28,826 nt of DNA from a virus (taxonomy: Duplodnaviria > Heunggongvirae > Uroviricota > Caudoviricetes). Of this stretch, positions 22,060 to 27,047 are shown one piece after another (positions within the stretch are counted from its first letter, which is position 1; each line of letters opens with the position of its first letter). A program made the translations under genes and the position numbers. The stretch lies in the IMG/VR virus record IMGVR_UViG_2541047699_000005; one strand, written 5' to 3'. The notes under the pieces were generated by a model, which was not told where the DNA came from, searched no databases, and worked only from the letters and a program-made list of their open reading frames with translations.

Positions 22060-22275
22060 TTACTCTCCCCGTGCAGCCTTACGACGGTCCTCTCTGATTT
22101 TGAAATACAGGTTAGTCAGATATGTCAGGAAGCCCAGAACCAGACTCCCCAGTACACCAATCGCAGCCCACTGTGACGGACTGACCTGATCAAGCCACTG
22201 TAAAAACCAGTAGCCAGCACTGCCTGCGGAGGTGCCGTAGGCAATGCCCGTTGAAATTTTATCCATGGATTTCAT
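22060..22275 (-). CDS. S: Class II holin (phage 21 S-type pinholin)
   Basis: In-frame Met gives [71 protein letters not shown] (71 aa), with two transmembrane domains and the dual-start Met-Lys-Ser-Met motif; GGAGGTG SD upstream. Confidence 0.85.
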
Positions 22276-22715: not shown

Positions 22716-22792
22716 CTGGCGCGTTGTACTGGATTCGAACCAGTGACCGATTGCTTAGAAGGCAATTGCTCTGTCCGGTTGAGCTAACAACG
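22716..22792 (-). tRNA. tRNA-Arg (anticodon UCU), CCA encoded
   Basis: Hand-folded cloverleaf: acceptor GCGTTGT/ACAACGC, D-stem GCTC/GAGC, anticodon stem ATTGC/GCAAT with loop CTTCTAA, T-loop TTCGAAT, discriminator G, CCA. Confidence 0.85.
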
Positions 22793-22805
22793 CAGGGTAC
22801 AGATA

Positions 22806-22882
22806 ATGGACCGCCATCGAGGACTCGAACCCCGCGCAACCAGCTTCGAAGGCTGGTGCTCTATCCTGATGAGCTAATGGCG
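22806..22882 (-). tRNA. tRNA-Arg (anticodon UCG), CCA encoded
   Basis: Hand-folded cloverleaf: acceptor CCGCCAT/ATGGCGG, D-stem GCTC/GAGC, anticodon stem CCAGC/GCTGG with loop CTTCGAA, T-loop TTCGAGT, CCA. Confidence 0.8.
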
Positions 22883-22889
22883 GTATGTG

Positions 22890-22965
22890 ATGGTGGCCCT
22901 TGCTGGATTTGAACCAGCGACCTGGCGATTATGAGTCGCTCGCTCTCACCTCTGAGCTAAAGGGC
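22890..22965 (-). tRNA. tRNA-Ile2 (anticodon CAU, lysidine-type, reads AUA)
   Basis: Cloverleaf with anticodon loop CTCATAA; overall sequence GGCCCTTTAGCTCAGAGGTGAGAGCGAGCGACTCATAATCGCC...CCA is very close to E. coli tRNA-Ile2 (ileX) as recalled, so it is read as Ile rather than Met. Confidence 0.8.
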
Positions 22966-22974
22966 CGGGCGCAG

Positions 22975-23164: not shown

Positions 23165-23193
23165 AATATATGCCTTTCAATCTACTTTTGCAA
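23165..23193 (-). promoter_or_regulatory. Candidate late promoter (pR'-like) overlapping the end of the Q-like gene
   Basis: On the minus strand: -35 TTGCAA, 17-bp spacer, -10 TATATT. The predicted transcript would run about 70-75 nt to the terminator at 23085-23110, giving a short 6S-like RNA. Confidence 0.4.
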
Positions 23194-23872
23194 CACTTTG
23201 CTTTGAAAATGCCGCCTTTTGTTTTGAACGTGTTCTCATTACAAACAATAAAGCCTCACTATCCAGTCGTTGAAAAATGTGTTTCATTGCAACCCAGTGA
23301 CGAGTAAATGTTTTGGACCAGTTTTTAGTTGTCACTCCCGCCAGTAATGCCAGCTCCTGGTATTCATAACCTTCCCCACCAAAAAGTTCTGCTTTTACTG
23401 CCTGCGCCGCCAGCCAGATTAATTTTTTCAGGCGTTCCTGCGTTTTCCCTGCAATTTTTCTGGTACCGGATTGAGTATTAAATTCATTCCACGCCCACTG
23501 TGTTATCGCGATCTGATATTCCCAACAAATACTCCCGCCGTAACACCACAACAACCAGGCTTTATGATGCTCTTCAAGAGACAGCAAAGCCCGCCGCCAT
23601 GATGATGTCGAAAACTCAACCGGGCTGACCAGGGCAATTGATGAGCCATTCGCCAGTGATTGTTTTCCCGGGATTGGTGGATTATCCCGCGTTATCATTT
23701 TTCCAGTCACTTCATCGCGGTACCGGATTTTTTTTCGCCTGTAACGCCCTGTATCGAACATGGCATTCTCCTGCCAGGCTTCAAGCTGACCTTTTGTTGC
23801 CCCACTCAAATCAGCGGTGGCGATAATGAGCTGCTCACGCACAAACTGTAAATACTGGTTATTCATGCGCAC
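23177..23872 (-). CDS. Putative late-gene antiterminator Q-like protein
   Basis: 231-aa ORF immediately upstream of the candidate late promoter/terminator and lysis genes, in the position of quuQ in Qin-like prophages. Assignment is by position; I do not recognise the sequence as lambda Q. Confidence 0.55.
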   Translation of the reverse strand: MRMNNQYLQFVREQLIIATADLSGATKGQLEAWQENAMFDTGRYRRKKIRYRDEVTGKMITRDNPPIPGKQSLANGSSIALVSPVEFSTSSWRRALLSLEEHHKAWLLWCYGGSICWEYQIAITQWAWNEFNTQSGTRKIAGKTQERLKKLIWLAAQAVKAELFGGEGYEYQELALLAGVTTKNWSKTFTRHWVAMKHIFQRLDSEALLFVMRTRSKQKAAFSKQSVAKVD

Positions 23873-25285: not shown

Positions 25286-25558
25286 TTACCTCCAGATGCG
25301 TTGCTGGAATGTGCGGGACGGACGCGGTGGGCGTTCAGAGTAAGGAAGCCTGACGGAGATTATCCAGTGACGATAATCGAGGCTGAGGGCTTTCTTAATC
25401 TCGTATCCGCGTCTGCGGTAGTTATGAATTAGCCATTCGGCCTGTTCTTCAGTACATGGTGGGTGTTGGTACCAGTCGGTTTTAAATGCGTGTGAACGCC
25501 GCTCATGCCGGATGGCAAGGTCGGTATCAGAATTGTGAAATTTGGTTTTGTGCGCCAT
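25286..25558 (-). CDS. Hypothetical 90-aa protein
   Basis: ORF-track ORF translationally coupled to the DUF968-like gene; basic protein, no recognisable motif. Confidence 0.5.
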   Translation of the reverse strand: MAHKTKFHNSDTDLAIRHERRSHAFKTDWYQHPPCTEEQAEWLIHNYRRRGYEIKKALSLDYRHWIISVRLPYSERPPRPSRTFQQRIWR

Positions 25559-25626: not shown

Positions 25627-25657
25627 CAGGAAAAAACAAAACCCGCCGAAGCGGGTT
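25627..25657 (-). terminator. Intrinsic terminator downstream of the hok-family gene
   Basis: Minus RNA aacccgc-UUCG-gcggguu followed by UUGUUUUUU; a second stable hairpin (ggcgaggga-gaaa-ucccucgcc, about 25693-25714) lies between it and the hok stop. Confidence 0.5.
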
Positions 25658-25725
25658 AAGTGCGGGTGCGTTGAGGATGCCTGACACATCAGAGGCGGCG
25701 AGGGATTTCTCCCTCGCCAAGTCTC

Positions 25726-25881
25726 TTACTCCTCAGGTTCGTAGACTGTGAAGACAGCGACCTCCGTCTGGCCGGTTCGGATTCGTACCTCGCAGAGGTC
25801 TTTCCTCGTTACCAGTGCCGTCACTATGACGGTTAAACAGATGACGATCAGGGCGATTAACATCGCCTTTTGCTGCTTCAT
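25726..25881 (-). CDS. hok: Hok/Gef-family type I toxin (51 aa)
   Basis: MKQQKAMLIALIVICLTVIVTALVTRKDLCEVRIRTGQTEVAVFTVYEPEE, with an AAGGAG SD. It is nearly identical to the HokD/RelF sequence as I recall it. The ORF-track frame extends 19 codons upstream in frame to an ATG at 25938. Confidence 0.85.
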   Translation of the reverse strand: MKQQKAMLIALIVICLTVIVTALVTRKDLCEVRIRTGQTEVAVFTVYEPEE

Positions 25882-26134
25882 AGCCTGCTTCTCCTTGCCT
25901 TTCGGCACGTAAGAGGCTAACCTAGATTTGCCGTTCATAGATTGAGCCTCAGATTAATGTTAAGCGTCTTGCAGGACGCGTAATGTTAACTGGGGCTTTT
26001 CTCTATCTGCCTTTGGTGTTCATGCCTGAGGCAGATAGCCTCAAGCACCCGCAGCAATTCTACTTAAGTTAGATAAGCTTTTCTATGGTATTCTCTCAGC
26101 GTCCCGTAAATACAGTCTCGGCTCATCATTTTTA

Positions 26135-26392
26135 TCACAGGTGCGAGGAAAATATATAGCGCCCTCCATCAAGCATAACGAAATACATTTTCCATTCATC
26201 GCCATTCCTCAATTTAATACGAAGACTTTCCCCGCAAGTGTATTTATTAAACAACTGTTCCGATGTGCTAGTAAGAGGTATTTTTACCGTTATTACAACT
26301 ACTGCCCCACCATTTAACTCTCGAAGTTCAGCATCCGCATCCACAAAAGATGAATAAATGTTATGATCTGGGTAATCAACAATTAACTGCAT
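26135..26392 (-). CDS. Hypothetical 85-aa protein in an AT-rich island
   Basis: ATG at 26392 preceded by AAGGAG at 5-nt spacing (the ORF track starts 2 codons earlier at GTG). Strongly AT-rich compared with flanking phage genes; no recognisable motif. Confidence 0.6.
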   Translation of the reverse strand: MQLIVDYPDHNIYSSFVDADAELRELNGGAVVVITVKIPLTSTSEQLFNKYTCGESLRIKLRNGDEWKMYFVMLDGGRYIFSSHL

Positions 26393-26531
26393 ATTCACTC
26401 CTTAAATATAGCAACTAAAACAAACAACGATTTAACAGTAGGAATTGTTTTTATAACATATGAACGGTGCAAGATCTATCCAGATGAAGCCTCCCCTCAC
26501 ACCCCCCGTCTCATTACATGCATTTACTATC

Positions 26532-27047
26532 TCACCGTAAAACATCCTCCACGCTTATCAGTCCGTTTCGCTTCAGGTAGTCCATCGCCTTCTCCGGTAA
26601 TTTGCAGTCCGGCTTGGCTTTTTTCAGTTGGCTGACCAGTCGTTTAACCCACATTGTTAATTCGCTAACCTGATTGCCGGAAGCTGGTGGGTTGTCGGCT
26701 TTACCCAGAATGACAGCACTGCAGGCCTCTTTGAGTACCCAATCAACAGCATCTTTCCATGCTCCTGTTTCGACTGGTGGATTCTCACGCTTTACCTGTT
26801 CATAAAAGCGCACGGCTTTAACCAGTCCTTCTGATGTCAGTGGCACAGGCGGGGCAGTGAATAACGCCTGAATTTCATAGCTCGGCCTGTCGTTGCAATC
26901 CTCTTTTGTCGGTACATATTTCCAGTCACCAACCCACGGCTCCCCCTGTGAGTCCGTAATGCCTTTTTTCACGTAGCGATATCGCCATGCAACTGGTTTT
27001 GCCTGCCCTGCCGTTTCATGTCCTTCCTGATAATTAATCTCGCTCAT
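26532..27047 (-). CDS. Hypothetical 171-aa nin-region protein
   Basis: ORF-track ORF; its ATG overlaps the stop of an upstream 58-aa ORF (ATGA). Confidence 0.6.
   Translation of the reverse strand: MSEINYQEGHETAGQAKPVAWRYRYVKKGITDSQGEPWVGDWKYVPTKEDCNDRPSYEIQALFTAPPVPLTSEGLVKAVRFYEQVKRENPPVETGAWKDAVDWVLKEACSAVILGKADNPPASGNQVSELTMWVKRLVSQLKKAKPDCKLPEKAMDYLKRNGLISVEDVLR

Follow-up and report, generated by a model that had tools for sequence, protein, structure and literature searches.

We are highly confident that the minus strand of the window (the whole analysed stretch of 28,826 nucleotides, IMG/VR record IMGVR_UViG_2541047699_000005) carries at 25631-26085 an entire type I toxin–antitoxin cassette, hok/mok/sok of the hokD/hokW type, which lies in the nin/Q region of a lambdoid prophage of E. 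coli. The similarity of this module to the known family is far above chance. Over 414 nt, reaching from the -10 box of hok to the fold-back inhibition element (fbi), its DNA is 93% identical to that of the annotated hokW/mokW/sokW system of phage 933W and Sakai prophage Sp5 (AF125520; PMC8621323), and the module is 100% identical to E. coli chromosomal copies annotated as hokD. A genome search matched the 581-bp region in 4740 of 5426 complete E. coli genomes, and identity of the module across thousands of genomes was 93-100%. The cassette is therefore an ordinary copy of a module type that is already known, with nothing new in it; its significance is slight beyond the right annotation of the locus, which should be read as a complete hokW-type hok/mok/sok module and not as the leaderless hokD of K-12.

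A scan with Rfam revealed that model RF01794 matches 25876-26050 of the minus strand with 111.7 bits (gathering score 59) and is covered in full. Since this model, named 'sok', ends in the Shine-Dalgarno (SD) sequence and AUG of hok, it represents the hok leader on the sense strand, and the strand of such a match should not be taken as the antitoxin strand. A plus-strand match to 'sok' (17.8 bits, E=0.23) was dismissed as noise. Three further families, isrK (28 bits, with 50 required for gathering), rsmX and ceN48, matched the 3' UTR of hok or its leader below gathering, and were discarded. The first-pass annotation had placed the locus at 25627-26000; the locus is real, but this extent is too short, as the module runs right to the hok promoter at 26085-26057. 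Its impression of an undamaged toxin gene was borne out, and IS elements, frameshifts and stop codons are all absent.

The hok gene itself (25726-25881, minus strand) encodes a 51-aa toxin with a match to Pfam PF01848 HOK_GEF (E=2.6e-22; 78.6 bits against a cut-off of 22), and is preceded by the SD sequence AAGGAG (25896-25891). Alignment with hokD and other hok loci revealed 98% identity to K-12 HokD, from which the protein differs solely by A46V, and retention of all 18 columns (18/18) that are invariant among HokD, HokW, HokC and the R1 Hok. The hallmarks of the family, a small single-helix Hok/Gef toxin with conserved Cys, Thr, TRK-LCE and EVA-F-YE residues, were all recognized. The intact toxin, SD sequence, 3' hairpin and terminator reported previously for this locus are all present, and the features of a long-lived mRNA are supported. 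Matches to the NCBIfam Hok-family and HokA models were below the curated cut-offs (45 bits versus 73), and the equivalog assignment was therefore withheld.

The reading frame of hok is open for 19 codons upstream, to an ATG at 25938 preceded by a GAGG SD sequence (25950-25947) with an 8-nt spacer, which confirms the same-frame extension described in the first-pass annotation. The resulting ORF of 70 aa (25726-25938, minus strand), taken from the ORF list, shares its stop codon with hok, has the geometry of mokW and mokC, and matched PHROG 251 'MokW-like host killing' (E=7.9e-32). This extension is Mok and no anomaly; such a leader frame is the norm in this branch of the family. The mokW/hokW genes of phage 933W end at a single common stop codon, as do mokC/hokC of K-12. 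The earlier statement that canonical mok lies in a frame other than that of hok holds for some plasmid loci, but not for mokW and mokC. On one E. coli IncC/IncF/IncR/IncU plasmid, Mok and Hok are annotated in different frames (DUF5431 at 485-637 versus Hok at 582-701), and in an R1-like IncFII plasmid copy the upstream ATG is in frame with hok. The mok gene of R1 itself is presumably out of frame; given the in-frame IncFII copy, the out-of-frame statement rests on the DUF5431/Hok pair and on 26 of 72 diverse loci, and not on R1.

Across these 72 loci the start of mok is located 56, 57 or 58 nt upstream of hok in 61 cases (57 nt here), and its register is in frame with hok in 32, out of frame in 26 (mostly in the R1-like Hok clade) and reduced to a short ORF in 3. 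Among 81 prophage copies, whose Hok proteins are 98-100% identical, the in-frame Mok is the majority form (65/81), in 12 copies mok is 19 codons long and ends on the ATG of hok, and others have an out-of-frame mok. Mok is hypervariable at residues 2-5, and for residues 8-14 there are two versions that are shifted in frame relative to each other. It is the start position and nucleotide sequence of mok that are conserved, and not the Mok peptide. The freedom of the register to drift among three states while the start stays fixed supports the established view that translation of mok matters, and not its peptide. The overlapping frame with its own SD sequence is consistent with translational coupling of mok and hok.

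A Sok-like antisense gene had been expected on the plus strand at roughly 25880-26000, and its putative position could now be narrowed by homology. The coordinates of the sokW misc_RNA of AF125520, when transferred to the window, give a predicted Sok RNA of about 71 nt at 25930-26000 (plus strand). Its candidate promoter (25895-25923, plus strand), read from the sequence and identical in 933W, is composed of a -35 box TTGCCT (25895-25900), a 17-nt spacer and a -10 box TAACCT (25918-25923), and both promoter and RNA are placed as in sokW and sokC. The first-pass annotation was unable to define an antisense promoter/terminator pair; this can probably be set aside, since homology assigns TTGCCT-17-TAACCT as the promoter and the hairpin at 25944-25998 as the terminator. 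The generic consensus promoter scan missed this Sok promoter, as the -10 box TAACCT, weak by consensus, was under the scan threshold; the assignment therefore relies on homology and on a published mutant, and not on the scan. In that work, mutation of the TAACCT -10 box of sokW (primers YO-421/422) abolished the protection by sokW and unleashed the toxicity of HokW (Takada et al. 2021, PMC8621323).

The RNA would begin with a single-stranded tail of 14 nt at its 5' end (25930-25943), which is complementary to the start codon and SD spacer of mok. The overlap of the RNA with the start of mok is 9 nt, equal to that of sokC/mokC. Folding of the terminator hairpin (25944-25998, followed by UUUUCUC) gave -33.3 kcal/mol, with z=-5.3. 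The short plus-strand hairpin GCGTC-TTGCAG-GACGC noted earlier at 25964-25980 is indeed present, as the tip of this far longer stem. Compared with the Rfam consensus and with hokC/sokC, this tip hairpin is an insertion of 18 nt, seen as an insert in the Rfam alignment and as a gap in the hokC rows of two other alignments.

On the opposite strand, a consensus scan revealed a hok promoter at 26057-26085 (minus strand), with a -35 box TAGAAA (26085-26080), a 17-nt spacer and a -10 box TAGAAT (26062-26057); the scan gave one match versus 0.9 expected by chance. The -10 box lies 6-7 nt upstream of the mRNA's conserved 5' end, and a TAGAAT/TATAAT box is found at an equal distance in most members of the family. 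The full-length hok mRNA, of about 418 nt, extends over 25631-26050 (minus strand) from the 5' end GGGUGCUUGAGG, placed by the start of the Rfam model at 26050, to the T-run of the intrinsic terminator. This terminator, AACCCGCTTCGGCGGGTT (25631-25657, minus strand), was identified by a terminator scan and folding, and its stem (25657-25640) precedes the T-run. All regulatory elements of the transcript could be localized on the minus strand: (i) tac, the translational activator element at the 5' end (26039-26050), from folds and its conservation across the family, (ii) ucb, the anti-SD box AAGCCCC (25992-25998), from folds, (iii) the Sok-target hairpin of the trimmed mRNA (25913-25950), which contains the mok ATG and a variable loop and in which the mok SD GAGG (25950-25947) pairs with dcb (25918-25913), from folds of the trimmed RNA, (iv) a 3' UTR hairpin (25696-25719) within a compound stem-loop (25737-25681), from a fold, and (v) fbi, CCUCAACGCACCC (25664-25676), from its MFE pairing with tac.

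The folding models reproduce the canonical hok mRNA switch. In the predicted MFE structure of the full-length RNA, tac (26050-26039) pairs with fbi (25676-25664) over 12 bp with one bulge, and ucb pairs with the mok SD region (closed state). In the fold of the 3'-trimmed RNA, tac (26050-26043) pairs with ucb (25998-25992) and the hairpin at 25950-25913 forms (open state). Among 80 homologues, 93.4% of cells retained the MFE structure, compared with 34-43% in slid controls, and the tac-fbi helix was 98.9% paired, fractions that are inflated by the close kinship of the sequences and by derivation of the structure from one aligned sequence. In this set 22 pairs had changes on both sides, and in the 3' UTR region compensatory changes were found in helices 13 and 17. 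Throughout the family the best partner of tac is found at +195 to +220 nt relative to the ATG of hok, and the tac/fbi partners co-vary between clades (GGGUGC/GCACCC, GGCGC/GCGCC and GGGCGC/GCGCCC). The tac-ucb helix, 99.8% paired in 80 sequences, is invariant, as are the GAGGC/GCCUC pairs of SD-dcb in 79 sequences; covariation is therefore uninformative for these two helices.

The mechanism that would follow from this anatomy has been shown experimentally, step by step, for hok/sok of R1, and some of it also for hokW-sokW, and we infer it here from the conserved elements (model after PMC9841398 and PMC1635323). A weak promoter would produce the stable hok mRNA, in which pairing of the 5' tac with the 3' fbi and sequestration of the mok SD by ucb would leave the full-length RNA neither translated nor bound by Sok. 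Slow exonucleolytic trimming from the 3' end would take off the terminator and fbi, and tac would then pair with ucb, freeing the mok ribosome-binding region as a hairpin that is both translatable and a target of Sok. By analogy with R1, the compound stem-loop at 25737-25681 should act as a road-block to this trimming (PMC1635323). Ribosomes initiating at mok, whose in-frame start here precedes that of hok by 57 nt, would open the hok start, so that Hok would be made only by translational coupling. The stronger plus-strand promoter within the mok/hok leader would meanwhile supply the short, unstable Sok RNA, whose 5' tail would pair with the mok start region, block mok translation and mark the duplex for RNase III. 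Once Sok synthesis stops (upon prophage loss, a transcription block or prophage induction), the stored trimmed mRNA would be translated, and the 51-aa Hok would insert into the inner membrane and depolarise or kill the cell. Slow 3' trimming, cleavage of the Sok-hok duplex by RNase III and the instability of Sok were described for R1 (PMC1635323). RNase III dependence is known for hokW-sokW, in which HokW is toxic and goes to the inner membrane and sokW is protective, with a contribution of RNase III and Hfq (PMC8621323). By analogy with this relative, toxicity of Hok and its neutralisation by Sok would be expected here.

Comparison with characterized systems places the cassette in the hokW-sokW subgroup, as the alignments revealed a near-identical leader, the 18-nt tip hairpin and a GGGUGC-type tac. 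The hokW system and the window are alike in the 51-aa Hok, the geometry of the 70-aa in-frame Mok, the Sok promoter boxes, the tac and fbi sequences and the 71-nt Sok with its tip hairpin. They differ at Mok codons 2-5, corresponding to the first nucleotides of Sok (MNGKS in the window versus MLNTC in 933W), and at the Hok C-terminus (FTVYEPEE versus FVDYESEK in the hokW system). The terminator and the region upstream of the -10 box are unrelated in 933W and the window, and the cassette is located in the nin/Q region here versus near the right genome end in 933W.

In the Qin prophage of K-12, hokD (relF) occupies the third position in the relBEF operon. It agrees with the window without any difference in 3' UTR, fbi and terminator, and a DUF968 gene lies downstream in both, but homology begins only at the hok SD. 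K-12 has relE and relB in place of the hok promoter, tac, ucb, mok start and sok, whereas the leader in the window is complete and without relBE; the arrangement of K-12 hokD/relF, a leaderless hok directly downstream of relB-relE, is thus not that of the window. In RefSeq, identical copies of the window module bear the label hokD, with both mok and sok unannotated. The hokC (gef)/mokC/sokC system of K-12 resembles the window in its in-frame Mok with a common Hok stop, in a Sok that begins 9 nt inside mok, and in its tac and SD/dcb boxes. Protein identity between the two is about 68% along the Mok-Hok frame of 70 aa, and sokC is 59 nt long because it is without the 18-nt tip hairpin. The 3' region of K-12 hokC is disrupted beside IS186, and its best tac partner is poor (L110 in our set of loci). 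The plasmid-borne R1 hok/mok/sok (parB) element shares with the prophage-borne element of the window the overall architecture, the predicted two-state mRNA switch, a mok start about 57-58 nt upstream of hok and a Sok composed of a 5' tail and one hairpin. However, the R1 Hok is only 41% identical to the Hok of the window, and the R1 tac is GGCGC with a matching fbi, versus GGGUGC in the window.

Within this otherwise conserved module, an entropy peak revealed a hypervariable patch at 25924-25945, which comprises mok codons 2-5 and the SD-ATG spacer. It corresponds to Sok nucleotides +1 to +16 together with 6 nt upstream of the Sok start, and to the apical loop of the Sok-target hairpin. About a dozen allele classes (23 distinct strings) were found among the 81 prophage copies with near-invariant Hok; the allele of the window, GCCGUUCAU..., is common to 15 of the 81. 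Different alleles were carried by co-resident copies in all six comparable genomes with at least two leader-bearing copies (6/6, a count without a null model). In IMG/VR contig pairs sharing a genome identifier, alleles differed in one of two, the counter-example being L061/L084. A rule that co-resident copies always carry different Sok tails is therefore suggestive only, and is not claimed. Tentatively, and with more doubt than conviction, we propose that the patch might be an allele series under diversifying selection, providing each prophage copy with a private antisense 'address' by which co-resident cassettes with near-identical toxins avoid cross-neutralisation.

Three other readings of the cassette were considered. 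It could look intact and yet be a functionally silent relic, like most K-12 chromosomal hok loci, with weak or no transcription and without effect on prophage stability, lysis or phage defence. The weak promoter matches and the missing leader of K-12 hokD itself would fit this, as would the lack of post-segregational killing by earlier-tested chromosomal hok loci, as cited in bioRxiv 10.1101/2025.08.07.668861. We nevertheless regard a relic as unlikely: none of the regulatory elements is missing and all are conserved (hok promoter -10, tac, ucb, mok SD/ATG, dcb, Sok promoter and terminator, fbi, terminator), the reading frames are undamaged, the high identity of the module is kept in thousands of genomes, and the near-identical hokW-sokW is active in its native prophage (PMC8621323). 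Less probable still, and in our view quite improbable, is that the 70-aa product, an in-frame Mok with the whole of Hok, is a biologically relevant membrane protein isoform and not a mere by-product of a ribosome-delivering leader frame. Since mok reads through hok to the common stop, initiation at 25938 can only yield a Hok with an N-terminal extension, and the in-frame form predominates among prophage copies and occurs in 32 of the 72 diverse loci. This frame, however, is not conserved, as indicated by the 12 prophage copies in which mok ends on the hok ATG and by the others out of frame; the start of mok shifts among -56, -57 and -58 in the family, and the N-terminal part of Mok varies at residues 2-5 and 8-14 as described above.

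A reading to which we give considerable weight, while rating it somewhat below an even chance, is that the cassette serves chiefly in the phage life cycle (faster host lysis and progeny release on induction, or superinfection exclusion) and not in classical post-segregational maintenance. When hokW-sokW was deleted from Sp5, growth arrest came about 40 min later and half as much phage was released, and sokW disappears after mitomycin C treatment (PMC8621323); moreover, hok genes are four-fold enriched in prophages (bioRxiv 10.1101/2025.08.07.668861). In the window, hok has the orientation of the early-right operon and immediately precedes the DUF968/RusA/Q genes, so that antiterminated read-through on induction could override the leader and, as we infer, interfere with the convergent Sok promoter. 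On the other hand, the position of the cassette is unlike that of hokW in 933W/Sp5, and the Sp5 result may therefore not transfer. This proposal concerns the biological role alone, and is compatible with the antisense-controlled switch that we prefer as the molecular mechanism.

The absence of relBE genes upstream, by which the first-pass annotation had distinguished this locus from Qin, was confirmed by a Pfam search of the upstream ORFs, in which RelB and RelE domains are absent; the neighbouring ORFs at 26135-26398 and 26532-27047 gave no Pfam match. A downstream ORF of 90 aa (25286-25558) was tried as a Rem homologue on the basis of Qin synteny, and similarity was absent; its sole match was PHROG 1212, of unknown function. 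Within hok, a TACG motif at 25740-25743 (minus strand), formed by the TAC codon of Tyr47 and the G of Glu48, was read from the sequence. It is a candidate site for A-to-I editing by TadA, which would turn Tyr47 into Cys; both the motif and the fact that it is conserved in Hok have been described (bioRxiv 10.1101/2025.08.07.668861).

The Hok-family toxin described in the first-pass annotation is real, was read correctly and is already known: the cassette at 25631-26085 is an intact hok/mok/sok module of the hokW type, present in thousands of near-identical copies across E. coli prophages, with a close relative that has been characterised experimentally. The hok gene (25726-25881, minus strand) encodes 51 aa, MKQQKAMLIALIVICLTVIVTALVTRKDLCEVRIRTGQTEVAVFTVYEPEE, and its ATG is preceded by the SD sequence AAGGAG. 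The same frame is open for 19 further codons upstream, to an ATG at 25938 with GAGG 8 nt ahead of it, giving a product of 70 aa. Searches with either product hit Pfam HOK_GEF (E about 1e-22) and PHROG 251 ('MokW-like host killing'), which, together with the ORF list, bears out the toxin gene and its SD-preceded extension.

The records of phages 933W and VT2-Sakai (Sp5) are 93% identical to this region over 414 nt, and they annotate mokW (213 nt), hokW (156 nt, with the same stop codon) and a 71-nt antisense RNA, sokW. The hokW-sokW locus was studied by Takada et al. 2021 (PMC8621323), who reported that HokW is toxic and located in the inner membrane, that sokW protects when transcribed from its own promoter, that this protection is lost when the sokW −10 box is mutated, and that RNase III and Hfq contribute (PMC8621323).

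Judged by its sequence, the in-frame extension is Mok. Its presence had been noted correctly, but it is not the oddity that it was taken for, since mokW/hokW of 933W and mokC/hokC of K-12 have the same geometry, each pair being in frame and sharing a common stop codon just as in the window. Of 81 IMG/VR prophage copies with Hok 98-100% identical to that of the window, 65 have mok in frame (70 aa), 12 have a mok of 19 codons ending in a TGA that overlaps the hok ATG, and one has an out-of-frame mok of 67 aa. A one-genome-per-species scan (72 unique loci from Escherichia, Shigella, Photorhabdus, Kluyvera, Enterobacter, Klebsiella, Buttiauxella and others) revealed an SD-preceded mok start 57 nt upstream of hok and in frame at 32 loci, 58 nt upstream and out of frame at 26, and 56 nt upstream with a short ORF at 3. 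An annotated plasmid pair (DUF5431/Mok 485-637, Hok 582-701) lies in different frames, and the upstream ATG of an R1-like IncFII copy is in frame with hok. Mok is hypervariable at residues 2-5, and its residues 8-14 exist as two frame-shifted versions; these data and the survey counts indicate that the position of the mok start is constant, whereas its frame and peptide are not. This pattern agrees with the established function of mok in delivering ribosomes (PMC9841398) and does away with the apparent anomaly.

The antisense partner, for which only an approximate plus-strand location had been proposed, was placed at 25930-26000 (plus strand) by aligning the annotated sokW of 933W to the window. 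The predicted Sok RNA begins 9 nt inside mok, as in K-12 sokC/mokC, and a putative promoter can be read ahead of it (TTGCCT 25895-25900, 17-nt spacer, TAACCT 25918-25923); primers YO-421/422, used to construct the promoter-less sokW mutant, swap out precisely this TAACCTA (PMC8621323). In the plus-strand fold, a single-stranded 5′ tail of 14 nt (GCCGUUCAUAGAUU), complementary to the mok start codon and SD spacer, is followed by a long hairpin (25944-25998; −33.3 kcal/mol, z=−5.3) and then UUUUCUC. The short hairpin observed earlier at 25964-25980 folds as the tip of this stem and represents an 18-nt insertion relative to both hokC/sokC and the Rfam consensus.

The Rfam family called 'sok antitoxin' (RF01794) matches the minus strand (25876-26050, 111.7 bits). 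Its consensus runs on the hok-sense strand from GGGUGCUUGAGG to the hok SD and AUG, and it therefore models the hok leader rather than the antisense RNA; pipelines trusting its strand would put the antitoxin on the wrong one. Several pairs in the Sok stem are G·U, so that the complementary hok strand would have A·C mismatches, which accounts for the mismatch marks in the Rfam alignment.

The predicted hok promoter (TAGAAA-17-TAGAAT, 26085-26057, minus strand) lies ahead of a conserved 5′ end at 26050, and the same −10 box recurs across the family at the same distance from that end. This moves the right edge of the module from 26000, as first drawn, to about 26085; the rest of that observation stands. 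Terminator scanning and folding confirmed the stable hairpin (25719-25696) and the intrinsic terminator (stem 25657-25640 plus T-run) downstream of hok, both on the minus strand. Against the Salmonella prophage sRNA IsrK (RF01394), the segment 25636-25717 (minus) scored 28 bits (E=8e-4), below the gathering score of 50; this is probably a generic two-hairpin likeness only.

In the fold of the full-length RNA (26050-25633), the first 12 nt (the tac element) pair with the fold-back inhibition element fbi (25676-25664; 12 bp, one bulge), and GCCCC (the anti-SD box ucb) pairs with the mok SD region. When the RNA was trimmed to 3′ ends at 25677, 25685 or 25695, 26050-26043 paired instead with 25998-25992 (tac-ucb), and a hairpin formed at 25950-25913 with the mok SD paired with dcb and the mok ATG near the loop. 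The two folds correspond to the closed and open states of the hok mRNA of plasmid R1 (PMC9841398; PMC1635323). An alignment of 80 related homologues, one of which supplied the structure, retains the full-length structure in 93.4% of cells (34-43% with partners slid); both sides have changed at 22 pairs (9-15 in slid controls), the tac-fbi helix is 98.9% paired, and the tac-ucb helix shows no variation. The two elements co-vary across clades (GGGUGC/GCACCC, GGCGC/GCGCC, GGGCGC/GCGCCC), and throughout the family survey the partner of tac is found 195-220 nt past the hok ATG.

The canonical hok/mok/sok mechanism is the best explanation for this copy, its steps being those that we infer from conserved anatomy: the mRNA would be stored in an end-paired form and activated by 3′ trimming, hok translation would be coupled to that of mok, and the Sok tail would pair with the target loop, after which RNase III would cleave. 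Candidate roles are prophage addiction, phage exclusion and faster lysis on induction, the last by analogy with Sp5, where after mitomycin C the hokW-sokW locus speeds lysis and doubles phage release (PMC8621323). Since hok has the same orientation as the early-right operon and sits a short way upstream of Q, one may speculate that antiterminated transcription reading through on induction could circumvent the leader and run into the Sok promoter.

Two entropy peaks, 25945-25941 and 25935-25924, stand out within the otherwise conserved module. On the Sok side this hypervariable patch (25924-25945, both strands) corresponds to +1 to +16 and the 6 nt that precede them; on the hok mRNA side it makes up the target-hairpin loop and mok codons 2-5. 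The prophage copies with 98-100% identical Hok fall into about a dozen allele classes (23 distinct strings, several being single-base variants). Co-resident copies carry different alleles in all six genomes with at least two comparable leader-bearing copies, and in one of two IMG/VR contig pairs with a common genome identifier. Diversifying selection for private antisense specificity is a possible reading of these counts, taken without a null model. Where mok starts and Sok has its 5′ tail, hokW-type loci (933W, L001; L094) and hokC of K-12 (L004, L110, L121) agree over a core of 17 nt, ATGCTGAACACATGTAG, although elsewhere their leaders have diverged; SokC and SokW might therefore recognize each other's targets in strains with both loci.

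Several E. coli strains carry the 581-bp region on their chromosomes with 100% identity, and 4740 of 5426 complete E. coli genomes contain some match to it (median 2 copies, maximum 11). In E. coli M1/5 it sits in a lambdoid prophage, in the order replication and nin-type genes, cassette, hypothetical gene, DUF968, RusA, Q, three tRNAs and holin/lysozyme; RefSeq names the gene hokD and leaves mok and sok without annotation. Alignment to hokD and other hok loci, a comparison suggested in the first-pass annotation, revealed that homology with hokD of the K-12 Qin prophage starts only at the hok SD, and the window therefore has the locus in full, hokD being a truncated version. The two loci share the 3′ UTR, fbi and terminator, whereas relE and relB lie upstream in K-12; a Pfam search of the upstream ORFs of the window found no RelB/RelE domain, in agreement with the original reading. 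The sole difference between the toxins is A46V, at a family-variable position, and comparison with HokD and the family disclosed no disabling mutation in the Hok of the window.

Three tRNA genes (22717-22966, minus) separate the Q antiterminator (23177-23866) from the holin (22060-22275). ARAGORN calls them Arg-TCT, Arg-TCG and a CAT-anticodon "Met", the last being Ile in RefSeq. Stx phages carry ileZ-argN-argO followed by stx at this position; no stx genes are annotated in the gap of ~440 bp from the tRNAs to the holin. A TACG motif (25740-25743, minus), formed by the Tyr47 codon TAC and the following G, lies inside CUACGAA, which we take to be the anticodon-loop sequence of tRNA-Arg2. TACG is the TadA motif for A-to-I editing; editing here, if it occurs, would turn Tyr47 to Cys and permit a Cys30-Cys47 disulfide, effects reported in other Hok transcripts (bioRxiv 10.1101/2025.08.07.668861). 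A 59-aa 'hypothetical protein' called by RefSeq in identical genomes (WP_001112736.1; 25505-25684, plus) is antisense to the hok fbi, the terminator and the start of the downstream gene, and is probably an annotation error. Near-identical E. coli-type hok loci were also found in assemblies labelled as a Veillonella parvula MAG, Xanthomonas pisi, Acinetobacter idrijaensis, Vagococcus sp. and a Dysgonomonas MAG (L092, L098, L128, L147, L148), some on very short contigs, for which contamination or mis-binning is the likeliest cause.
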